This document shows positions 50,411-58,826 of a stretch of 64,000 nucleotides of DNA, one piece after another. The stretch is taken from the NCBI GenBank assembly GCA_963717935.1, contig CAVQXP010000004.1, positions 32,001 through 96,000 of the forward strand. The letters run 5' to 3'. The notes beneath the pieces are model-generated. The model did not search any database. It was not told the DNA's origin and was given only the letters and a program-made list of their open reading frames with translations. Position 1 is the stretch's first letter. Each line of letters opens with the position of its first letter. The translations under genes were made by a program, and so were the position numbers. This stretch comes from Candidatus Eiseniibacteriota bacterium. Lineage in GTDB: Bacteria > Eisenbacteria > RBG-16-71-46.

Positions 50411-51793
50411 TCAGCCCCGGCCACGCCGCTCACCGCTCGAGCCCCGGTCCGAGCTGCCCCGCGCAGGCTTGGAGCGCGGCGCCGGATTGTCCGGCGGCGG
50501 CGAGGGTCGCGCCTCCTCGCTCGGGCGCTCGTACTTCGGCGGCGCTGGCGAGGGTCGCGTCCCCTTGCTCGGGCGCTCGTACTTCGGCGGCGCTGGCGAA
50601 GGCCGCGTCCCCTTGCCCGGGCGCTCGTACTTCGGCGGCGCTGGCGAGGGTCGCGCCCCCTCGCGCGGGCGAACGTAGCGCCCGCTCCCGGCGGGCCCCC
50701 GGGTCGTTCCCGGCCTGCTCGCCTGGCCGGGCCGCACGCCCGCCTGCGGCCGCACGCCCTGCCCCGGCTCCCCGATGGCCGGGCGGTTCGCCCCGACCGG
50801 CACACGCAGGCGCACGCCGTCCGCACCTCTCACGTACGTACCGGCCAGGAAGCCCGGCGGCAGCGGCTTGCCTTCCTTCCAGCGCGACCAGTCGTAACGA
50901 TTCGGCGGCGTATAGCCCACGGGCGGCGCCGTCTTGTAACGCGTGAGATGGCCGCTCCACAGGACGCTCCATTGCCGCTGGCCGTTCCACGACGAGTAGT
51001 AGGGCCGGTCGTATGGCGCGCACGGATAGCAGCGAGGCACGTAGCAGAAGTAGGGCACGGTGCCGAACCAGTAGCGCGGCCCCCAGCTCCAGCCCCAGTA
51101 GACGCGGAAGTCGAACGCCGAGCAGTTCGTGTAGTAGGGATCGTAGCCGTCCCACCAGGCCCACTGGTTGGGACGGTGGCAGTCGTTGCAGAGGTAGCGC
51201 GGGTAGCGCACGGGCTGGTGGATGTAGTACGAGGTGTAGGCCGTGGCGAAGGTCTCGGGGTCGTTCGCATCGCTCAGCACCTGCCGGCGGATGCGCTCCA
51301 TGGCCACGAACGGGTCGCCCATGATGCGTCCGTCCGAGGTCACGTCCTCGTCGTCCTGCTCCTCGCCCACGTAACCGGCACCCTCGGCCTGGGGATCGTA
51401 GGGACGCAGGAAGCGGGGCAGGGCGTTGAAGGGCTCACGGGAGACGAGGGCCACGATGTAGCCCTGCCCCACGGGCCCCTGCACGACGAGCTGCAGGCCG
51501 GACTGGTAGGGCGGCACCCGGTAGGTCTGCCGGCCCGCGACGTAGCCGCTGCTCCCCTCGTAGGGGTACAGCACGCGCACGTAACCCTCCGAGTCGATGT
51601 CGTAGACCAGCAGGTAGCCCTCGTCGGAGGCGCGCACCTTGATCTCGACCGGCTCGCCCGGCTCGTACACCGCGTCCTTGCCCCGATCGGTCCAGATGTC
51701 CACGCCCATCGCCCGGGCCCGAGCCGCGGGCGGGGCGAGGACGAGCCCGATCATGAGGGCGCCAAGAAGCCACCGCGCTCGGAACATGGTCAC
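50411..51793 (-). CDS. Secreted DUF4384-like protein with Tyr/Trp/Cys-rich region and repetitive tail
   Basis: Signal; VDIWTDRG..YEPGE..YLLVYDIDSEG.VRVLYP; CNDCH; low-complexity C-terminus. Confidence 0.8.
   Translation of the reverse strand: MTMFRARWLLGALMIGLVLAPPAARARAMGVDIWTDRGKDAVYEPGEPVEIKVRASDEGYLLVYDIDSEGYVRVLYPYEGSSGYVAGRQTYRVPPYQSGLQLVVQGPVGQGYIVALVSREPFNALPRFLRPYDPQAEGAGYVGEEQDDEDVTSDGRIMGDPFVAMERIRRQVLSDANDPETFATAYTSYYIHQPVRYPRYLCNDCHRPNQWAWWDGYDPYYTNCSAFDFRVYWGWSWGPRYWFGTVPYFCYVPRCYPCAPYDRPYYSSWNGQRQWSVLWSGHLTRYKTAPPVGYTPPNRYDWSRWKEGKPLPPGFLAGTYVRGADGVRLRVPVGANRPAIGEPGQGVRPQAGVRPGQASRPGTTRGPAGSGRYVRPREGARPSPAPPKYERPGKGTRPSPAPPKYERPSKGTRPSPAPPKYERPSEEARPSPPPDNPAPRSKPARGSSDRGSSGERRGRG
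50499..50670. repeat. About 3.5 copies of a 48-bp coding tandem repeat (16-aa RPSPAPPKYERPxxxx)
   Basis: GGGCGCTCGTACTTCGGCGGCGCTGGCGA recurs at 50523, 50571 and 50619. Confidence 0.9.
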
Positions 51794-51880
51794 GCTCCCT
51801 CCGGAGGTCCGGGCCGCTGTCCGTCGGCCGGCCGCGCGTCCCGCGGTTTCTCGGCCGGACGGCGCTCCCGGTCCCTCTCT

Positions 51881-52336
51881 TTACTTCGGTTTCGTCTTCC
51901 TGGTACCCGGCTCGCGACGGGTCTTCTCCCGGACCTTCAGCTCGCCGGGCCCCGGCAGCTTCCCGGAGGCCACCCCGGCCCGCCATGAATCGTAGTCGCG
52001 CGGCTCACGGTAGCGCCGCTGTGCCCGGTATCCTGCCGGGTAGCGGTAGCGGCCGTACGAGGGGTTCTGCTCCTTGATTCGCACGTAGCGTTCGCGGTAG
52101 ACGCGGACCGTTTCCGGGTGACGGTTCCACGCGTAGCGGAACCCGTAGCCCGCGCACCAGTCGTAGTACGGGTCGAGGTAGCGGTACCCGTGACAATCAT
52201 AGCAGTAGTAGCTCGCCGATGGGCGCCCGGTGGAAGCGTAGGATGCAGTCAGCGGGTAGCGCGATCCGACCCAGATCGCGCAGCCCGGGAGCGCGGCGAG
52301 CACCACGGCCGCGCAGGCTGCCTGTGTCCAGCGCAA
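51881..52336 (-). CDS. Tyr/Arg-rich putative lipoprotein
   Basis: LAALPGC lipobox-like; YYCYDCHG; TTG start behind a GGAGGG RBS. Confidence 0.65.
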   Translation of the reverse strand: MRWTQAACAAVVLAALPGCAIWVGSRYPLTASYASTGRPSASYYCYDCHGYRYLDPYYDWCAGYGFRYAWNRHPETVRVYRERYVRIKEQNPSYGRYRYPAGYRAQRRYREPRDYDSWRAGVASGKLPGPGELKVREKTRREPGTRKTKPK

Positions 52337-52347
52337 GAGAGCCCCTC

Positions 52348-53193
52348 CTACTGGTGCAGCCAGACGATGGGCCGCCGCTGCGACACGCCTTCTTCGGTCG
52401 CCGGTGTCGCCTTCAACTCGCGGTTGCCCGGGTCGATCTGGTAGGCCCAGTCGAGCGTGATCTGGGTCGGCCCCACGGCGGTGACGCGGAACTTGGCGTA
52501 GTGGTTGTCACGGGTCCAGACCACGTAGGCATGCCCTACGACGGCCTCGACCGTGCCGCTCGGGGACCAGCCCGAATCGGGAGCGAAGTCCACGGCGTCG
52601 AGCGAGGACGTGTACCCCGCATCCTGGATATCGGTCGAGGGGTCCGGGACGAAGACCTGCTGGTGGATGAGCCCGGTCGTGTCCTCGTAGTAGCCGAAGA
52701 AGATGTCTGCCGGCGGTTCGGTGGTGAGGGTCCGCGCAAAGGCCGAGAAGTCGTAGCCGATGTCCGTGCTGTAGACCAGGTAGTTGTTGAGCACCAGCCC
52801 GGTGCCCGCCGGCCGGGGCGTGTCGAAGACGTTGTCGTAGCTGAGGTCGCCCTCGACGCCCGCATGGTTCACCGCCGCGACCGCGAAGAAGCGCGGCACG
52901 CCGTTCACCAGGCCGGTCACCACGTACTCGACGTATTCGGCGCCCGTCGGCGCCGGAAGGACCGCGATGCGCGTGTAGAGGCAGTCCGGCTCGCCGCACG
53001 GCGACTCGTAGACGCGGTAGCCGACCACATCGGCCTCGGTGTTCGCCAGCCAGACCAGCGTGACCTCGTTGTCGCCGGTGACACTGAACAACCCCCGCGG
53101 AGCCGCGGGCGGCAGGACGGGGGCCGTGGTCCTCTCGCTGCATCCACCGAGGAGGATGCCGAGCGCCACGAGGGGCAGAAGCAGCCTGTTCAT
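52348..53193 (-). CDS. Putative lipoprotein with FN3-like domain and HmuY-like C-terminal region
   Basis: MNRLLLPLVALGILLGGC lipobox; PAAPRGL..VTLVW..GYRVY..GLVNG..FAVAAVN; YVVWTRDNHYAKF. Confidence 0.75.
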   Translation of the reverse strand: MNRLLLPLVALGILLGGCSERTTAPVLPPAAPRGLFSVTGDNEVTLVWLANTEADVVGYRVYESPCGEPDCLYTRIAVLPAPTGAEYVEYVVTGLVNGVPRFFAVAAVNHAGVEGDLSYDNVFDTPRPAGTGLVLNNYLVYSTDIGYDFSAFARTLTTEPPADIFFGYYEDTTGLIHQQVFVPDPSTDIQDAGYTSSLDAVDFAPDSGWSPSGTVEAVVGHAYVVWTRDNHYAKFRVTAVGPTQITLDWAYQIDPGNRELKATPATEEGVSQRRPIVWLHQ

Positions 53194-53248
53194 CAGTTTC
53201 CCTCCGGTCAGGCGTGGCGGTGATGGAGCCATTCGCCGGCATCATAGG

Positions 53249-53263
53249 GCAATGGCCGTGCCA
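53249..53263 (-). promoter_or_regulatory. sigma54 promoter of the lipoprotein/DUF4384 operon
   Basis: TGGCACGGCCATTGC, a perfect TGGCACG-N4-TTGC match. Confidence 0.8.
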
Positions 53264-53323
53264 TGCCACATCGCCGTCCGCACGCGGCGGGGCGCGGGCA
53301 CAACCCCCTGCGGGTCAACGCGG

Positions 53324-53366
53324 AAGAAGCGAGGAGCCGCCCTGCGGAAGGCCCGCGGAGCGGCTC
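53324..53366 (-). terminator. Intrinsic terminator-like hairpin
   Basis: Minus strand GAGCCGCTCCGCGG-GCCTT-CCGCAGGGCGGCTC followed by CTCGCTTCTT. Confidence 0.55.
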
Positions 53367-53753
53367 GATCGTGCGCCTCGGACGCAGGTGTGAACCTTGC
53401 GCCACACCGTCCTGCACGCACACACGCAACAGGACACCGGCCTGTTGCAGATGCGGCCAGCCGGGACATCCCCCAATGTCGGCCAACCACGTCTTCGACC
53501 GGTGCCCTGAAACCCGAAGCGGGCCGGGTCTGCGCGTTGAGGCTGCAGAGACCGGGTATGCTTGCTTTCTCGGCGGCAGGCGCCGACCCACTCCGGGTGG
53601 TGTTTTCGTGATCCAAGCTAGGCGGTCGCAGAGGACGGTGCGTTGTCTAGTGACTGGGGCTCGTACCCTCGACCGGATCCCCCGCAGTGCCGCCTAGCCC
53701 AGACTGTCGTCCGGCAGCATCACCGGATTTCTTGGAGGTCCCCCCCTCCGCGG
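53324..53753 (-). ncRNA. Candidate ~430-nt structured sigma54-dependent ncRNA
   Basis: Bounded by a sigma54 promoter and a terminator; about 10 consecutive stem-loops; no credible ORF. Confidence 0.55.
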
Positions 53754-53763
53754 GCAGACGAGC

Positions 53764-53779
53764 AGCACGCGCCGTGCCA
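53764..53779 (-). promoter_or_regulatory. sigma54 promoter upstream of the candidate ncRNA
   Basis: TGGCACGGCGCGTGCT; IHF-like TGCAA-N4-TTA at 53808-53819; inverted repeat AACCAT-N11-ATGGTT at 53886-53908. Confidence 0.65.
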
Positions 53780-54082
53780 GCCCGGAGTCAGCCCAGTACG
53801 ATTCTCTTAACTCGTTGCACTGCAACTGACACGAGGTCTTGGCGGACTCACCGGCAAGGTCACTCGGAAGGCCCAGACCCGGGGAAACCATGAAGACATT
53901 TTATGGTTCCACGACCTCTCGGCTAAGCGCATGGTTCGCATGGTCTTCGATGTGAAGGAGTTTGATAACGCGATTGGCAATGGACCTGCGCATCAGGCCT
54001 GGGGCCAGAGGCGCGCCGGGAAGACAAGGCTGAGGGGAGGCCTGGAGAGGACCCCGGGAGGTCCCGCGTGCAGCGCGCGAGG

Positions 54083-57000
54083 CTACGAGCGGCGGCGCTC
54101 GAGCTCGAGGTTGCGGATCCTGGCGAGCAGCGTCGGATAGCTCAGGCCGAGCTCGCGCGCCACCTTCGCCTTGTTCCAGCGGTGCCGGTCCAGGGCCTCG
54201 GAGATCACGCGGCGCTCGAGCTCCGAGACGCTCGAGCGCAGGCTGCGGCCCGCCTCGCCCCCGTTGCCCGCGGCAGCCGCCACGGCCCGCGTGGCCGGCT
54301 CGCGCATCTCGGGCGGCAACAGGTCGAGCCCGAGCAGATCGCCCTCGTCCGCGAGCACGACCAGGCGTTTCACCGTCTTGTCCAGCTCCCGCACGTTGCC
54401 GCGCCACTCGTGCGCCAGGAACAGCTGCATCACTTCGGGACTGAATCCGCGGACGTTCTTCTCCATCTGGCGCGAGTACACGTTGAGGAAATGCTGCGCC
54501 AGCACCGGGATGTCCTCGCGCCGCTCGCGCAGCGCGGGCACGCGCACCGTGATGTCGTTGAGCCGGTAGTAGAGGTCCTCGAGGAAACGGCCCTCCCGGA
54601 TGCGTTCGCGCAGGTCCACGCCGGTGGCGCAGATCACGCGCGCGTCCACGCGCTTGCTCCGCGTGGCGCCCACCGGGCGGATCTCGCCGCGGTCCAGCAC
54701 GTGCAGCAGCTTCGCCTGCACCGACTCGGGCACCTTCTCGATCTCGTCGAGGAAGATGGTCCCGCCCTCGGCCTCCTCGAAGAGTCCCTGCTTGTCGCGC
54801 ACCGCTCCGGTGAAGGCGCCGTGCACGTAGCCGAACAACTCGCTCTCGAGCAGCGACTCGGGCAGCGCCGCGCAGTTCACCTGGACGAACGGCCGGTCGC
54901 GACGGTTCGAGGACTCGTGCACGACCTGCGCGAGCAGGCCCTTGCCCGTCCCGGTCTCGCCCATGAAGAGCACCGTGGCCGAGCTGTCGCCGACCTTCGA
55001 GAGCAGGGCGAGGAGGCCCTTCATCTCGCGCGAGGCGGTCACCACGCGATCCATGCCCGCGCTCGGCCTCAGCTTGTCCCGCAACTCGCGGTTCTCGGCC
55101 AGCAGCAGGGACCGCTGCGCCTCGACGATCGCCACCGCCGCGCTGTTCGCCAGCACCGCGAGCAGGTTCACGTCGCGCTGCTTGAACGGCCCCAGCAGGT
55201 TGTCGTTGAGCCGGTCCACGAACACCAGCCCCACCGACTGCGAGGGGAAGTTGAGCGGCACGCAGACCAGCGAGGCGACGCTCTCCAGCGCGTCGGCCAC
55301 CGCGACGCCGAAACGCGGATCGGCGGCCACGCGGCTGGAGAACACCGGACCGCTCTCGGCCAGGCGCGAGCCCACCGCCTCTTCCAGCGCGCGCAGGATG
55401 CGCCGCGCCCGGTCACGGCCCAGGCCATGCTGAGCGACCACGTCGAGCCTCACGCCCCCGCTCGAGAACGCCACGAAGCCGCGGTCCCCGCCGGCATTCT
55501 CCACCGCGAGCTTGACGGTCTGGGCGAGCAGCCCGTCCATGTCCGAGGTCTCGCGGAACAGGCGGTTCGCGTCCTCGAGCGCGCGGAACTCGTTGCTCGT
55601 GGAGAGCGAGACGGCGACGTACTGGCGCTCGATCTCGCGCCGCAGCGCCTCGGCCCGCCCGCCCGCGGGCGCACCGGCCTCCAGCAGCCAGAGTTCGGCC
55701 TGTTCGAGCAGCCCCAGCGCCTGGTCGTAATGCTCGCGCTCGGTCTCGAGGCGGGCGAGTGTGAGCAGCGCCTCGGAGGCGAGCGGCACCACGCCGAACT
55801 GGCGGAACAGAGTCGCCGCGCGCTTGGCCGCGTCGGCCACCGGCTCGAGCGGCAGGCGCAGCCGGGCGCTGGCCGGCAGCAGCAGCAGGAAATCGCCCCA
55901 CGCCGCCAGCGTGGTGGCCAGCTCGTAGGACTCGCCCAGGGTCTCGAAGGCCTGTGCCGCCGCGAGGATCTTGGCCTGCGCTCCGGCCGCGTTGCCGCGC
56001 ACGGCGTCGAGCTGGGCCAGCGCGCGGTCGGCGATGGCGGCCTCGATGCTGTCGCCCAGCTGCGCGGCCAGCGCCGCGCCGCGCACCAGGTGCGCCTGCG
56101 CCTCGGGCGTGCGCCCGGCCGCGAGCAGCGCGAGCCCCATCCGGGTCTCGAGCTCCGCGACCAGGTCGCCCTGCGGTGCGCTGCGGCGCGCTTCGTCGAG
56201 CGCGGGCTCGAGCAACGCGAGCGCCGCCATGACGTCGCCGCGGTCCAGCGCCAGCTCGCCCAGGAACTCGCGGGCCAGCGTCGCCTCGCGCAGCGCGCCC
56301 ACGGGCAGCGCCAGCTCGAGCGCGCGCCGGAAGTGCTCCTCGGCGGATTCCAGCTGGCGCCGGCGCCGCGCGAGCAGACCGGTCGCCAGCAGCGCCGCGG
56401 CCTCGCCCTGCAGGTGGCCGGTCTCACGGGAGATCTTCAGCGACTGACGGAAGTTCTCCTCGGCAAGGTCCCACTGCCCCAGGCGGTAGCGGATCAGGCC
56501 CAGGTTCTGGTTGTGCCCGCGCATGCGGGAGTAGAGGCCCGCGCGCTCGTCGAGGCGCAGCGCCTGCTCCAGGAAGCGTGTGGCCTCACGCCACTCGCGC
56601 AGGTTCTTGTAGACCAGCCCGAGGTTGTTGAGCGCGGTGACCAACCCGTCGGTGTCGTCGATGCGGCGGAAGGTGGCGGCCGCGTTCTGCAGCCACTCGA
56701 TGGCCTCGCCGGTGCGGCCCTGGCGCGTCGCGCACAGCCCGAGGGTCACCGCGACCTCGCCGACCGCGTGGTGCTCGTCGGTGTCGCGAAGCACGCCGTA
56801 GGCGTACAGCGCGTAGCGGCGGCTGCGGCGGTACTGCCCCTGCTGGATGAGCGCGCCGGCGAAGCGGGCCGCGATGACCGCGGTCTGGCGCGGGTCGCCG
56901 AGCAGGCGGGCCGCGGCGCGCGCTTCACGGAGGGTGGCAACCGCGGGCTCGTATTCGCCGTGGGCCGTGTGCACCCTGGCCACGCTGAGCAGGAGCCGCA

Positions 57001-57175
57001 CACGCTCCCCGGGAGCCTCGGGACCGACCGTCTTCAGCGCGGCGCGGTATTCCTCGAGTGCTTCCGAGAAGTTGTCGGCCGCCAGATGCAGATCGCCGAT
57101 CGCCTCATGCTGGCCGGAGCCGGCACGACCGGCGCCTGCTGCATGAGCCAGATCGGGGGGGATCGCTCTCTGCAC
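54083..57175 (-). CDS. TPR-GAF-AAA+-HTH sigma54-dependent activator (1030 aa)
   Basis: About 500 aa of TPR repeats (ALNNLGLVY, NLGLIRY), a GAF domain, GETGTGK, ESELFGYVHGAFTGA, FLDEIE, GNVREL, Fis HTH; no REC domain. Confidence 0.92.
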   Translation of the reverse strand: MQRAIPPDLAHAAGAGRAGSGQHEAIGDLHLAADNFSEALEEYRAALKTVGPEAPGERVRLLLSVARVHTAHGEYEPAVATLREARAAARLLGDPRQTAVIAARFAGALIQQGQYRRSRRYALYAYGVLRDTDEHHAVGEVAVTLGLCATRQGRTGEAIEWLQNAAATFRRIDDTDGLVTALNNLGLVYKNLREWREATRFLEQALRLDERAGLYSRMRGHNQNLGLIRYRLGQWDLAEENFRQSLKISRETGHLQGEAAALLATGLLARRRRQLESAEEHFRRALELALPVGALREATLAREFLGELALDRGDVMAALALLEPALDEARRSAPQGDLVAELETRMGLALLAAGRTPEAQAHLVRGAALAAQLGDSIEAAIADRALAQLDAVRGNAAGAQAKILAAAQAFETLGESYELATTLAAWGDFLLLLPASARLRLPLEPVADAAKRAATLFRQFGVVPLASEALLTLARLETEREHYDQALGLLEQAELWLLEAGAPAGGRAEALRREIERQYVAVSLSTSNEFRALEDANRLFRETSDMDGLLAQTVKLAVENAGGDRGFVAFSSGGVRLDVVAQHGLGRDRARRILRALEEAVGSRLAESGPVFSSRVAADPRFGVAVADALESVASLVCVPLNFPSQSVGLVFVDRLNDNLLGPFKQRDVNLLAVLANSAAVAIVEAQRSLLLAENRELRDKLRPSAGMDRVVTASREMKGLLALLSKVGDSSATVLFMGETGTGKGLLAQVVHESSNRRDRPFVQVNCAALPESLLESELFGYVHGAFTGAVRDKQGLFEEAEGGTIFLDEIEKVPESVQAKLLHVLDRGEIRPVGATRSKRVDARVICATGVDLRERIREGRFLEDLYYRLNDITVRVPALRERREDIPVLAQHFLNVYSRQMEKNVRGFSPEVMQLFLAHEWRGNVRELDKTVKRLVVLADEGDLLGLDLLPPEMREPATRAVAAAAGNGGEAGRSLRSSVSELERRVISEALDRHRWNKAKVARELGLSYPTLLARIRNLELERRRS

Positions 57176-57280
57176 GTTCGAACCCTCGAGTCACATCACC
57201 CGGTTGGGCATCCCGTCGGTTCGACTCCGGGATGCCGTTGGTGTTGCGTAGAGCTTGGATGCCCCAGCGGTCAGGCGGGG

Positions 57281-57776: not shown

Positions 57777-58826
57777 TTAGGATGCGTCCGGGCGCGGAGC
57801 GGACCGGGCCTTGCTGCCGCGTGGCAGGGGCGGGGCGCCCGGGACCTGGCCGGCCGGCACGGGACCGGGGGGGGGCTGCCGGCGGTCGAGCAACTCCCCG
57901 ACGGCCATGCGCACCAGCCCGTAGCGAAGCCCCTGGGTGGAGCATACGAGCGCCGACGAGGGGAAGCGCTCGAAGAGCAGGGCCACGACCAGGGCGCCAG
58001 CCACGACGATGTCGGCCCGGCCTTCTCCCACGGTGGAGAGGCCCCTGCGATCCGCGTGGCACGATCGGGAAAGATGGTCGACCAGCCCGGAAAGCCGCTC
58101 GGGACGGATGGACCAGCCCTCGAGGAGCGCCGGATCGTAACTCTTGAGCTGGCGGTCCATAGAGGCAAGGACCGTGACCGTTCCGCCGACACCCACGAGG
58201 AGTGGGACCTTCTCCGGCATCAATGCACAATGATGCATGATTCCAGCCTGCACCTCGGCCCGCAGAGCCATGATCTCTCCCGGGTCAGACGGGTCGGAGC
58301 GCAGGAACCGCTCGGTCAGGCTGACCGCGCCAAACGGCAGGCTGGCCCACCTTCCGGCCTGCGGCCCCACCCCGCTGACGACCTCGGTGCTGCCCCCGCC
58401 GATGTCGAAGGCGACGCAGGCGCTATGGGCTGCGCTGCGCCCCAGGCCGAGGACGACCGAGCGGTAGACCAGTTGCGCCTCGTCGTCGCCGGTGAGCACG
58501 CGAACGGGCAGCCCCGAACGACGTTCGACGATGCCGGCCACCTCGGCCCCGTTGCGGGCGTTGCGGATGGCGGCGGTCGCGCCGATCACGATGTGCTTCG
58601 CTCCCAGCGACCGCGCGCGCCGCACGAATTCCGCCGCCAGACCGCCGGCCCTCTGCGCCAACTCCTCCTCGATGCTCCCGGCCCGGTCGAGCCCCCGCGC
58701 CAGACGGCAGACCTCGCCCGCCCTGGCCACCGTCTCCAGCGTCCCGCCCGGGCCGCCGCGTTCGTCCACGTCGGCGACCAGGAGTCGGATGGAGTTGGAT
58801 CCGATATCAATTGCAGCTACGCGCAT
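57777..58826 (-). CDS. ppx: Ppx/GppA family exopolyphosphatase
   Basis: AAIDIGSNSIRL, ATAAIRNARN, DEAQL, DIGGGSTE, GVGGTVT, RADIVVAG, GLRYG. Confidence 0.92.
   Translation of the reverse strand: MRVAAIDIGSNSIRLLVADVDERGGPGGTLETVARAGEVCRLARGLDRAGSIEEELAQRAGGLAAEFVRRARSLGAKHIVIGATAAIRNARNGAEVAGIVERRSGLPVRVLTGDDEAQLVYRSVVLGLGRSAAHSACVAFDIGGGSTEVVSGVGPQAGRWASLPFGAVSLTERFLRSDPSDPGEIMALRAEVQAGIMHHCALMPEKVPLLVGVGGTVTVLASMDRQLKSYDPALLEGWSIRPERLSGLVDHLSRSCHADRRGLSTVGEGRADIVVAGALVVALLFERFPSSALVCSTQGLRYGLVRMAVGELLDRRQPPPGPVPAGQVPGAPPLPRGSKARSAPRPDAS

Follow-up and report, generated by a model that had tools for sequence, protein, structure and literature searches.

Between the gene of a predicted sigma-54 activator and that of a predicted lipoprotein, a stretch of about 430 nt without an open reading frame is found in the 64-kb piece of a Candidatus Eisenbacteria genome analysed here (the window). 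The question raised by this locus is whether the stretch encodes an RNA, where such an RNA begins and ends, and what it might do. The minus strand from about 53753 to about 53425 is very probably a separate gene for an independently transcribed structured RNA of about 325 nt, which was previously undescribed and for which we infer a regulatory role. Conservation, covariation, synteny and metatranscriptome contigs agree with the core of the original prediction, namely a highly structured, sigma-54-promoted RNA without an open reading frame or an Rfam match; the length of 430 nt given there, however, has to be shortened to about 325 nt. The features of the locus are listed in Table 1.

Table 1. 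Features of the RNA locus and its neighbourhood (window coordinates).
Feature	Position	Strand	Description	Basis
RNA gene	53421..53753	-	~325 nt; 3' end within 53431-53421	Folding z, model R1, RNA-library contigs
Sigma-54 promoter P1	53765..53779	-	TGGCAC (53779-53774)-N6-TGC (53767-53765); predicted +1 ~53753, 12 nt on	
H1, 5'-terminal hairpin	53734..53749	-	GGAGG-GGGGGA-CCUCC; G7 run 53746-53740	Phylum-wide pattern search
H2, variable hairpin	53710..53727	-	UCCGG...CCGGA	4/4 modelled pairs change on both sides
Core multibranch domain	53612..53703	-	14-bp closing stem UCUGGGCUAGGCGG/CCGCCUAGCUUGGA, inner stems, invariant GGUCGAGGGUACGAGCCCCAGUCA..GACAACGCACCG	Covariation
Variable middle hairpin domain	53512..53598	-	Closing stem ACCCGGAGUGGGUCGG/CCGGCCCGCUUCGGGU	MFE and centroid folds
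3' domain	53432..53507	-	Long stem GGGCACCGGUC/GGCCGGUGUCC around invariant hairpin GACAUUGGGGGAUGUC (53480-53465); terminator stem	
U-containing tail past terminator stem	53421..53431	-	Weak in this genus: UGUUGCGUGUG	
Enhancer-like DNA block (putative)	53371..53408	.	GGTGTGGC-N7-TCACACCTGCGTC-N8-GCAC; upstream of P2, outside RNA	
Second GC hairpin (earlier 'terminator')	53334..53366	-	U-poor tail	Read from sequence
Second sigma-54 promoter P2	53249..53263	-	TGGCACGGCCATTGC; predicted to serve lipoprotein operon	
Lipoprotein gene	52348..53193	-	LGGC lipobox, weak fn3 match; first gene of syntenic operon	
Activator gene	54083..57175	-	TPR-GAF-Sigma54_activat-HTH_8 enhancer-binding protein, 1030 aa	Pfam Sigma54_activat E = 2.1e-64
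C7 run, candidate pairing site for G-rich loops	57155..57161	-	Codons 5-7 of activator mRNA, GUG CAG AGA GCG AUC CCC CCC GAU	

Extent and fold of the RNA

The stretch folds better than shuffled sequence, as had been expected. The folding energy of the 430-nt stretch is −224.1 kcal/mol, compared to −196.0 ± 7.1 kcal/mol for its shuffles (z = −3.97), and none of the 100 shuffles was as good; the revised 333-nt stretch gives −169.9 compared to −146.0 ± 6.0 (z = −4.00). Novelty had been made to depend on the absence of a known family, and a search with Rfam 15 (4227 models) gave no gathering-level match in the whole 64-kb window. In the E-value mode, the region 53000–54100 gave four chance-level matches with E of at least 2.3, the best of which reached 16.6 bits where the gathering threshold is 100. 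The set of models included RNase P, tmRNA, SRP, 6S, CsrB/Rsm, CrcZ, Qrr, Pxr and large ncRNAs. A housekeeping RNA was rejected because the genome encodes RNase P (C4:1930677-1931095, 262.9 bits), tmRNA (C4:921511-921870) and 6S RNA (C1:22376-22597, 68.8 bits) at other locations; the earlier remark that hallmarks of RNase P, tmRNA and SRP are missing is in line with the Rfam search. A conserved open reading frame was sought in 20 homologues and none was found; no frame is kept, and the longest open stretch changes its frame and location from one homologue to another.

Five parts make up the fold, namely the 5'-terminal hairpin H1, a second hairpin (H2), a branched core, a middle hairpin that varies between homologues, and a 3' stem which also serves as the terminator. 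Covariation backs H2, the core and the 3' stem. In the larger model, 95.4% of the cells are paired and 22 of the 41 modelled pairs show two-sided changes, where none of 500 shuffles was as good and slid controls reached only 31–53% paired; in the 3' domain, the corresponding values are 92.2% and 19 of 23 pairs. The covariation called for by the original prediction is therefore present, and several of its helices are backed individually: UCCGG/CCGGA (4/4 pairs), the long multibranch stem along with the stems and the two small hairpins inside it, and GUGGUUGGCC/GGCUGGCCGC together with GACAU/AUGUC. The closing stem of the core is paired in 98.9% of the cells, with changes from G-U to A-U or G-C. 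Two other proposed helices fared differently. UCGGCG/CGCCGA is absent from the consensus fold, and GCAACAGG/CCUGUUGC is not confirmed as a feature of the RNA; it is restricted to this genus and competes with the covariation-supported long-range stem formed by GGGCACCGG (53507–53499) and CCGGUGUCC (53440–53432).

The stem of H1, GGAGG/CCUCC, is GC in 44 of 46 rows, and at one pair it shows two GC-to-CG changes, both in rows later judged misaligned; covariation is uninformative on a stem that is nearly invariant. The R1 alignment of L073 and L075 had set H1 on an inserted hairpin, and this placement was rejected, the true H1 lying about 140 nt upstream. Homologues of the middle domain carry a different but complementary pair of arms, as judged by eye. 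GGGGGATG of the 3' domain is found in 42 of 42 sequences, and the 10 nt after the terminator stem contain at least four T in 31 of 42 homologues and at least five T in 26 of 42.

RNA-library contigs from four libraries of four studies, which contain no strand information, cover 53429–53789 and nothing else of 53200–53900. Positions 1–315 of a 322-nt contig align to 53431–53746, its remaining 7 nt lying on the 5' side of the RNA, and the ends of this contig match both predicted ends of the RNA. The contigs of two studies end at 53429–53431, where it should be considered that contig ends need not be true RNA ends. One contig extends upstream of P1 and one extends past 53430 into the next block, which indicates that read-through or DNA carry-over exists. 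A discrete minus-strand RNA had been expected from metatranscriptome reads; the contigs cover only this interval and one fits the prediction at both ends, but contigs do not show the strand, and two of them overrun the predicted ends. The zero depth outside 53429–53789 may reflect divergence of the flanks in related organisms rather than silence.

For the last ~100 nt of the 430-nt stretch, the more suitable reading is a block of DNA resembling an enhancer, followed by a hairpin ahead of P2. GGACG-GUGUGGC...CACAC-CGUCC (53408–53371) had been proposed as an RNA helix; however, its sequence is conserved without compensating changes, and it lies beyond the 3' end of the RNA. Judged from its sequence, this block would function as enhancer-like DNA. 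The hairpin at 53366–53334, formerly taken as the terminator, lies about 65–100 nt past the point where the RNA contigs stop and has no contig cover. In family f11, a like block (TGTAGCGC..GTCACACTGT) is located well past the U7-9 terminator of the RNA.

Promoters, synteny and distribution

The sigma-54 promoter with its +1 at about 53753 is present as claimed, and rpoN is present in the genome. Among 46 loci, drawn from five families, the distance from the end of the motif TGGCAY-N6-TGC to H1 is 13–15 nt in 44, and a −24/−12 promoter (GG-N10-GC), as in sigma-54-dependent sRNAs, is thus predicted at a fixed spacing to the 5' end. In 30 of the 46 loci, a second motif, TGGCAY-N5-TTGC, separates the RNA from the lipoprotein gene. 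Counted by family, this P2-type promoter occurs in 18/19 loci of f1, the family of this genome, in 9/11 of f11 and 3/4 of f3, and in 0/9 of f18 and 0/3 of f2. The order activator-RNA-lipoprotein, with the activator directly upstream of the RNA, is kept in 26 of 26 loci of one set and also in 27 H1-bearing syntenic loci of f2, f3, f11 and f18, so that a gene predicted to encode a Sigma54_activat AAA+ protein stands beside the RNA. In addition to Sigma54_activat, Pfam TPR, GAF and HTH_8 domains are found in the activator, and a receiver domain is not.

Model R1 finds the RNA as a single copy in 86 of 89 genomes of f1. All 44 high-quality genomes and all 28 genera are among the matches, and completeness is 54, 58 and 66% in the three genomes where the model found nothing. 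Plain blastn recovers the RNA in 23 of 24 genomes of f1 and in 0 of 17 outside the family; detecting it beyond f1 required the covariance model and the H1 pattern. R1 matches three of three in f2 and four of four in f3. Reverse-strand matches of R2 and one of R1 had weak E-values and were excluded by tighter thresholds. Of the 206 genomes of the phylum, 144 have a single occurrence of the H1 pattern each, compared to five hits for a reversed control pattern. H1 is syntenic in f1, f2, f3, f11 and f18, and in the last four families divergent forms of the RNA occupy the same spot. The f11 form is about 135 nt long, with H1 only and a much smaller core, and its U7-9 terminators lie 200–300 nt before the operon; the f18 form differs in its middle part; and f3 RNAs contain extra GGGAUG hairpins. 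Hits of the H1 pattern in f10, f15, f16 and f17 were rejected as chance, as they have C in variable positions and no activator or lipoprotein neighbours.

Possible modes of action

As suggested by its position, the neighbouring activator would turn on the RNA and, via P2, the downstream exported-protein operon. The conserved blocks upstream of the two promoters differ, TTGC-N5-GCAA at P1 versus GTGTGGC..GCACAC at P2, a point that weakens this reading. The RNA would then act in trans via two invariant G-rich apical loops, GGGGGGGA in H1 and UGGGGGAU in the 3' hairpin. The best-supported candidate target in this bacterial order is the nucleotide-invariant AUCCCCCCC in codons 5–7 of the activator's own mRNA, where pairing within the ribosome footprint would lower translation of the activator and result in negative feedback, as exerted by Qrr on luxO. 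We consider that the RNA may work by such feedback pairing, a reading that is possible but somewhat short of probable.

The conservation of the activator start is consistent with this reading. In 19 of 19 loci of f1, the gene begins with GTG CAG NGA NCG ATC CCC CC[C/T] GA[T/G/C] and the codons after it diverge; the first 24 nt show 97% identity versus 81% overall and are the third most conserved stretch of the 3.1 kb. The two Pro codons are CCC in 18 of 18 and 17 of 18 sequences, whereas at invariant Pro columns CCG is commoner than CCC (142 vs 97 of 252). The genome contains 13-fold fewer runs of C7 or longer than expected (329 vs ~4253), and under a crude filter the start region of the activator is the only one in this genome that holds such a run. 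The longest complement between the RNA and the start region is the H1 loop against +13 in 17 of 19 loci of f1. In genus g68 of f18, the C-run is shifted to −10 (UUUCCCCC) and H1 reads G6AA; two RNAs of this genus (L165 and L166) have a perfect complement of 10–11 nt, which is reached by at most 1% of shuffles. Otherwise the longest perfect complement at a locus is 8 nt, a length that is unexceptional, as 19–34% of shuffled start regions reach at least 8 nt against this GC-rich RNA, and weight is therefore given only to its conservation and to the matches of L165 and L166. The unconstrained RNAduplex energies at 46 loci were no better than those of dinucleotide shuffles (z from −2.84 to +1.80); such energies do not discriminate in GC-rich RNA and are used neither for nor against loop pairing. 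Hfq was not found in this genome, which makes pairing of G/C-rich loops without a chaperone plausible. The C-run is C6-7 in 19/19 loci of f1 and 3/3 of f3, C8 in 1/3 of f2 and C5 in 3/8 of f18; in the 11 loci of f11, no run at that place exceeds C4. Unlike the C-run, H1 does not vary among the five families, and feedback therefore cannot be the universal role of H1.

The main rival to feedback is titration of CsrA, a global translational repressor, where GGA hairpin loops are taken as predicted CsrA sites and the activator would thereby shift free CsrA up or down. This is unlikely, as are the proposed sites themselves, namely the 3' hairpin ACAYUGGGGGAUGU, the H1 loop ...GGGA and the extra GCAGCAGGGAUGUUGC of f3. 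CsrA is encoded in the genome (91.4 bits) and in all five RNA-bearing families (f1 82/88, f2 3/3, f3 10/10, f11 38/41, f18 15/15; 148 of 157 genomes, G000 not counted), but also in most of the families in which no copy of the RNA was found (f17 12/13, f15 5/6, f14 3/3), which indicates that the co-occurrence is permissive and not specific. A search of the genome for FliW, the protein that antagonizes CsrA in many bacteria, gave no hit, and no flagellar genes adjoin csrA; this gap would be filled by an antagonist made of RNA. The motif CA-N1-5-GGAU[G/A], present in 41 of 42 3' domains with an ACA/UGU stem that is nearly invariant and not covarying, resembles the CsrA/RsmE consensus (A/U)CANGGANG(U/A), and the additional GGGAUG hairpins of f3 also fit titration; the loops, however, exceed the consensus site by 3–4 nt, and the f11 form has only H1. 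Sponges of the CsrB/Rsm type contain many GGA motifs, mostly in loops or single strands. In this RNA, GGA is not enriched (7 in 333 nt vs 7.3 ± 2.3 in shuffles, with 2 in predicted loops), and none of the Rfam CsrB/Rsm models match. A protein- or ligand-binding RNA, in which H1 and unpaired core bases form a specific three-dimensional site, is rather improbable, and so is its corollary that the G loops belong to the fold or to the site of a partner rather than being pairing seeds. Invariance of the H1 stem without covariation, in 44 of 46 rows and across five families, hints at sequence recognition by a protein, and the helix GGAGG/CCUCC has the same letters as the Shine-Dalgarno/anti-Shine-Dalgarno duplex. 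The comparison of 20 full-length sequences gives 73 invariant columns and 41 that are almost so, and many of these correspond to unpaired bases at junctions; simple seed-pairing sRNAs, moreover, do not usually reach 325 nt or have a multibranch core. It is not possible to name a partner, however, and the core is not conserved across the phylum, being smaller in the ~135-nt f11 form, while the middle differs in f18, which argues against an indispensable tertiary core. H1 and the junction core might also form a sensing or protein-/ribosome-docking module that gates exposure of the G-rich loops, making the RNA a large structured global regulator; this is quite doubtful, but if true it would represent a new class coupling a sigma-54 signal to translation, and more than a further feedback sRNA.

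The RNA could also be a cis leader of the lipoprotein operon, reached by read-through from P1 via a regulated terminator and comparable to an attenuator or riboswitch rather than a free RNA. Its constant position between the activator and the lipoprotein gene is compatible with this, as are the weak U tract of the terminator in this genus, the one contig that continues past 53430, and f18 and f2, in which a canonical second sigma-54 promoter was not found (0/9 and 0/3). We regard a leader as very unlikely, because a near-consensus promoter stands before the operon in most loci of f1, f11 and f3, the contigs of two studies end at 53429–53431 and the 322-nt contig equals the predicted RNA, and the f11 terminators precede the operon by 200–300 nt. 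In addition, a variable domain of ~100 nt separates the conserved core from the terminator, unlike in known riboswitch platforms, and a riboswitch couples its aptamer to the expression platform with no promoter between, where P2 lies in 30 of 46 loci. That the locus is only a DNA-level control region of enhancers, bending sites and promoters, whose inverted repeats mimic RNA helices, is hardly credible. Such a reading is the best one for 53408–53334, and AT-richer conserved blocks upstream of P1 resemble protein sites. Within 53753–53432, however, pairing is kept through G-U, A-U and G-C exchanges, which would be meaningless on double-stranded DNA, the helices keep pairing despite insertions of variable length, and the interval was recovered as contigs from four RNA libraries.

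Relation to known systems and significance

For a separate, trans-acting RNA beside its activator, the layout itself is already known from CbrB-CrcZ and LuxO-Qrr. CrcZ is ~400 nt long and sequesters through A-rich motifs, and Qrr RNAs are ~100 nt, multi-copy and Hfq-dependent. According to PMC8871633, the CrcZ (CrcY/CrcX) gene of Pseudomonadaceae lies directly downstream of the sigma-54 activator gene cbrB as a separate transcription unit, with synteny kept across its group; its promoter is sigma-N-dependent and activated by CbrB, with some read-through from the activator's promoter, and the RNA acts by sequestering Hfq/Crc. The Eisenbacteria RNA resembles CrcZ in its place directly after a sigma-54 activator, its conserved synteny and its similar size. 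Unlike CrcZ, it occurs in a genome where no Hfq was found, shows no conservation of its linkers and has G-rich loops as its conserved elements; neither its sequence nor the Rfam search gave a match, and the activator is a TPR-GAF protein without a receiver domain. According to PMC3262071, the Qrr sRNAs of Vibrio are made under the sigma-54 activator LuxO and repress luxO mRNA in a negative feedback, which is the circuit proposed here on the strength of predicted pairing. Compared to Qrr, the Eisenbacteria RNA is long (~325 nt), single-copy and multibranched, in a genome where no Hfq was found. With CsrB/RsmY/RsmZ it shares GGA in hairpin loops, the CA-N-GGA-U-G of the 3' hairpin, and a setting with CsrA and no FliW found, but only two GGA loops are conserved, with no GGA enrichment and no Rfam match; to our knowledge, CsrA sponges are not sigma-54-dependent. 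Further sRNA genes that adjoin a sigma-54 activator, or are under the control of one, are Pxr beside nla19 in Myxococcus and GlmY with GlrR in enterobacteria. These RNAs are far smaller than the present one and fold differently, and the Rfam models for them give no match here.

In the literature searched, to the extent that its text was available, no regulatory RNA is described for Candidatus Eisenbacteria, an uncultured phylum, and 'Eisenbacteria' and 'noncoding RNA' co-occur only in a soil co-assembly study. The RNA represents a new family for Rfam; in its bacterial family it is as universal as a housekeeping RNA, and it is seen in the RNA libraries of four studies. It marks a compact, portable circuit of activator, RNA, second promoter and exported-protein operon, provides a well-defined system for testing how an sRNA can exert control without Hfq, and offers a testable feedback loop that would depend on a G7 run in the RNA and a C7 run in the activator mRNA, both of them rare homopolymers.

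Structure of the RNA and its evolutionary support

As shown in the table, the RNA gene lies between the gene of a sigma-54 activator (TPR-GAF-Sigma54_activat-HTH_8) and a lipoprotein gene. On sequence reading, its promoter P1 sits about 300 nt past the activator gene end, and the fold from the predicted +1 consists of five parts: a 5'-terminal hairpin (H1), the next hairpin (H2), a branched core, a middle hairpin and a 3' domain.

Features of the RNA locus (window coordinates)
Feature	Position	Strand	Remarks
Activator gene (1030 aa)	57175-54083	-	Pfam: TPR, GAF, Sigma54_activat (E = 2.1e-64), HTH_8
P1, sigma-54 promoter of the RNA gene	TGGCAC (53779-53774)-N6-TGC (53767-53765)	-	-24/-12 promoter; predicted +1 ~53753
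H1	53749-53734	-	GGAGG-GGGGGA-CCUCC
H2	53727-53710	-	
Branched core	53703-53612	-	closing stem 14 bp
Middle hairpin	53598-53512	-	long, variable
3' domain	53507-53432	-	long stem around hairpin GACAUUGGGGGAUGUC, then U-containing tail
Sequence-conserved block	53408-53371		GGTGTGGC..TCACACCTGCGTC..GCAC; 3' of RNA
GC hairpin	53366-53334		3' of RNA
P2, sigma-54 promoter of the lipoprotein operon	53263-53249	-	TGGCACGGCCATTGC; near-consensus
Lipoprotein gene	start 53193	-	

The folding z-score against shuffles was -3.97 for the 430-nt stretch of the original prediction and -4.00 for the revised 333-nt stretch, which 0 of 100 shuffles equalled. RNAalifold gave 66 pairs for 20 full-length sequences, 27 with compensatory changes. 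In the 5' domain (46 sequences), 95.4% of the cells are paired and two-sided changes occur in 22 of 41 pairs, and in the 3' domain (42 sequences) the values are 92.2% and 19 of 23, as counted on model-fitted alignments, which lean to the model's structure. None of 500 shuffles reached these values in either domain, and with slid partners (by 1-3 columns in the 5' domain) the paired fraction was 31-53% and 33-42%, respectively. Covariation supports H2, the core and the 3' stem, and the closing stem of the core exchanges G-U for A-U or G-C among the homologues, which is sensible at the RNA level only and bears out the claim of RNA-level rather than DNA-level structure. Variation is almost absent from the stem of H1 and, in the 3' hairpin, from the ACA/UGU stem; covariation is therefore uninformative on both, and their invariance is noteworthy in itself.

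Rfam 15 gave no gathering-level match across the 64-kb window, and in E-value mode only four matches over the RNA region (best E = 2.3), which agrees with the proposed novelty. The stretch occurs as one copy in its source genome (G000), where RNase P, tmRNA and 6S are all located elsewhere, which rules out these identities. A conserved reading frame was sought among 20 homologues and none was found, so that the description as ORF-less holds.

Distribution and family variants

A blastn search recovered the stretch from 23 of 24 further genomes within its family (f1) and from none of 17 genomes beyond it. Within f1, R1, a covariance model of the 5' domain (145 positions), detected the RNA as a single copy in 86 of 89 genomes, G055 alone having two. 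Every genome with a completeness of 90% or more had it (44 of 44), as did every genus (28 of 28), and the three genomes missed by R1 have a completeness of 54, 58 and 66%. Among 151 genomes sampled from the class, R1 also matched f2 (3/3) and f3 (4/4), with two weak matches in f11 (2/41) and none in 63 genomes of fourteen other families. Of 206 genomes of the phylum, 144 contain the H1 pattern, GGAGGGGGG-N1-2-ACCTCC, nearly always once, against 5 hits of a reversed control pattern: f1 82/88, f2 3/3, f3 5/10, f11 38/41 and f18 9/15, where the f3 tallies (R1, H1 pattern and CsrA counts) take in the unpublished genome G026, of which no sequence was used. Seven hits in f10, f15, f16 and f17 were rejected, being without activator or lipoprotein neighbours.

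For synteny, 35 loci were fetched, and the f3 locus L072, without an exact H1 match, was left out. In the 27 H1-bearing loci of f2, f3, f11 and f18, H1 lies mostly 230-340 nt past the activator orthologue (measured from the HSP or ORF end, partial HSPs giving larger values) and, in 26, 480-1040 nt ahead of the lipoprotein orthologue; the exception, L076, has no lipoprotein match. The gene order Ppx/GppA phosphatase, activator, RNA, fn3-like lipoprotein, (small ORF), DUF4384 protein is kept in five families (window 50411-53193 and 57777-58826, minus strand), and the exported proteins have no known function.

The RNA differs in form among the families. That of f11 (~135 nt) consists of H1 and a long stem that encloses a small branched core, ends in U7-9 and is without the GGGGGAUG hairpin; that of f18 (~235 nt) carries H1 and ACAUGGGGGGAUGUC; and f2 keeps H1 and the core, with a degenerate 3' hairpin. 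The f3 form (~500 nt) is lengthened by an insertion of ~140 nt past H1, in which GCAGCAGGGAUGUUGC and CCGGGAUGG are additional hairpins. The extra loops (L075 6980-7010; L184) read GGGAUG, and the insertion looks like a duplication of the 3' hairpin motif.

Promoters and RNA ends

Across five families, 44 of 46 loci carry TGGCAY-N6-TGC ending 13-15 nt ahead of H1, which upholds the predicted sigma-54 promoter, and rpoN is encoded in the source genome. Four metatranscriptomic libraries, each from a different study, yielded contigs that align to 53200-53900 at 80% likeness or more; these cover 53429-53789 only, with the caveat that contigs reveal neither strand nor true ends and that flanking sequence in relatives may be too divergent for alignment. 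One 322-nt contig aligns with 315 letters to 53431-53746, so that its ends fall at the terminator-stem end and the predicted +1; the contigs of a second study likewise stop at 53429-53430. In one run, the core is covered up to a summed word depth of 864. One contig extends 136 nt upstream of P1 and another 56 nt past 53430. At least four T occur among the 10 bases after the 3' stem in 31 of 42 homologues, the tail being poorer in this genus. Taken together, the 3' end of the RNA lies near 53430. Of the discrete minus-strand transcript originally placed at 53753-53324, the start at ~53753 matches a contig end, but the 3' end does not stand.

At 53432-53450 (minus strand), GCAACAGG and CCUGUUGC can pair locally, in this genus only, to form a hairpin as a competitor of the conserved long terminator stem, and UGUUGCGUGUG replaces the usual U tract; termination may have changed specifically in this genus.

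At 53408-53371, the conserved block keeps its sequence and shows no compensating changes, and a like block in f11 lies well past the terminator of the f11 RNA, which speaks against the GGACG-GUGUGGC element as part of the transcript. Ahead of the lipoprotein gene, the P2 form TGGCAY-N5-TTGC occurs in 18/19 f1, 9/11 f11, 3/4 f3, 0/9 f18 and 0/3 f2 loci. The lack of compensation, the f11 position and the conservation of P2 suggest that the block is an enhancer-like DNA site for P2.

Two AT-richer conserved blocks between the activator stop and P1 (53955-53967 and 53880-53900, minus strand), one reading TATCAA-N5-CTT, like an IHF site shifted by one base, and the other CTTAG with a conserved TT, may serve the sigma-54 promoter as DNA-bending sites. 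A candidate activator site is the palindrome TTGCAGTGCAA at 53815-53825 (minus strand; TTGC-N5-GCAA in relatives), which precedes the -24 element of P1 by ~35-60 nt; it is unlike the block upstream of P2, so P1 and P2 may not share an activator site.

Possible targets of the RNA

The G-rich loops of H1 and the 3' hairpin would pair with a C-run at the start of the activator mRNA and thereby form a feedback loop, a tentative reading with somewhat less than an even chance. Activator codons 5-7 read AUC CCC CCC (C7 at 57161-57155), with the same letters in 19 of 19 f1 loci, and the codons after them diverge. The first 24 nt show 97% identity compared to 81% overall (18 full-length genes, leaving out L067, whose frame is cut at 441 codons), and CCC encodes the two Pro residues in 18/18 and 17/18 sequences, whereas CCG is commoner than CCC at invariant Pro columns (142 vs 97 of 252). 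The source genome holds 329 runs of C7 or longer against ~4253 expected from composition (~13-fold rarer), and of 45 near a possible start codon the activator's alone passes a crude filter (ribosome-binding site and 5'-most start). C7/G7-or-longer runs are ~13-fold depleted genome-wide, so the G7 of H1 and the C7 of the activator are unusual letters. AUCCCCCCC is complementary to GGGGGGGA of H1 (8 bp) and to the 3' loop GGGGGAU (7 bp), and its pairing with H1 is the longest complement between RNA and start region in 17 of 19 f1 loci. In f18 genus g68, the C-run lies at -10 as UUUCCCCC and H1 reads G6AA; two RNAs there have a 10-11-nt perfect complement to UUUCCCCC, which at most 1% of shuffles reach. 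Against feedback, an 8-nt complement is met in 19-34% of shuffles, duplex energies of the RNA with the activator start region do not stand out, and f11, most of f18 and part of f2 have a short C-run or none, while H1 is invariant throughout.

The activator mRNA start (57155-57190, minus strand) reads GAGGGUUCGAA..GUG CAG AGA GCG AUC CCC CCC GAU; this region is nearly nucleotide-invariant in 19 of 19 family loci, and the next ~20 codons are unconserved even as protein.

The main rival, that the RNA titrates CsrA by binding it, is unlikely. CsrA is encoded in the source genome and occurs in all RNA-bearing families, FliW and Hfq were not found in that genome (93% complete), and the 3' hairpin carries CA-N-GGA-U-G in 41 of 42 sequences; however, GGA is not enriched (7 vs 7.3 expected), only two copies lie in loops, and CsrA is common also where the RNA was not found. 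Another partner has a similarly low probability, and a cis leader is still less probable. The sole CsrA gene (C2:334157-334627; L157 1501-1971) encodes the CsrA domain in residues 1-53 of a 156-codon frame, with no Pfam match for the ~100 residues beyond; the next gene encodes a histidine kinase.

The layout, an RNA gene behind a sigma-54 promoter next to an activator gene, is the same as that of CbrB-CrcZ, where the activator gene is followed by the sigma-54-driven RNA gene as a separate unit (PMC8871633). The proposed loop between RNA and activator would mirror the repression of luxO by Qrr (PMC3262071). The RNA represents a new, real and well-supported family whose kind is known: a regulatory RNA, probably sigma-54-dependent, with its gene beside that of its probable activator.
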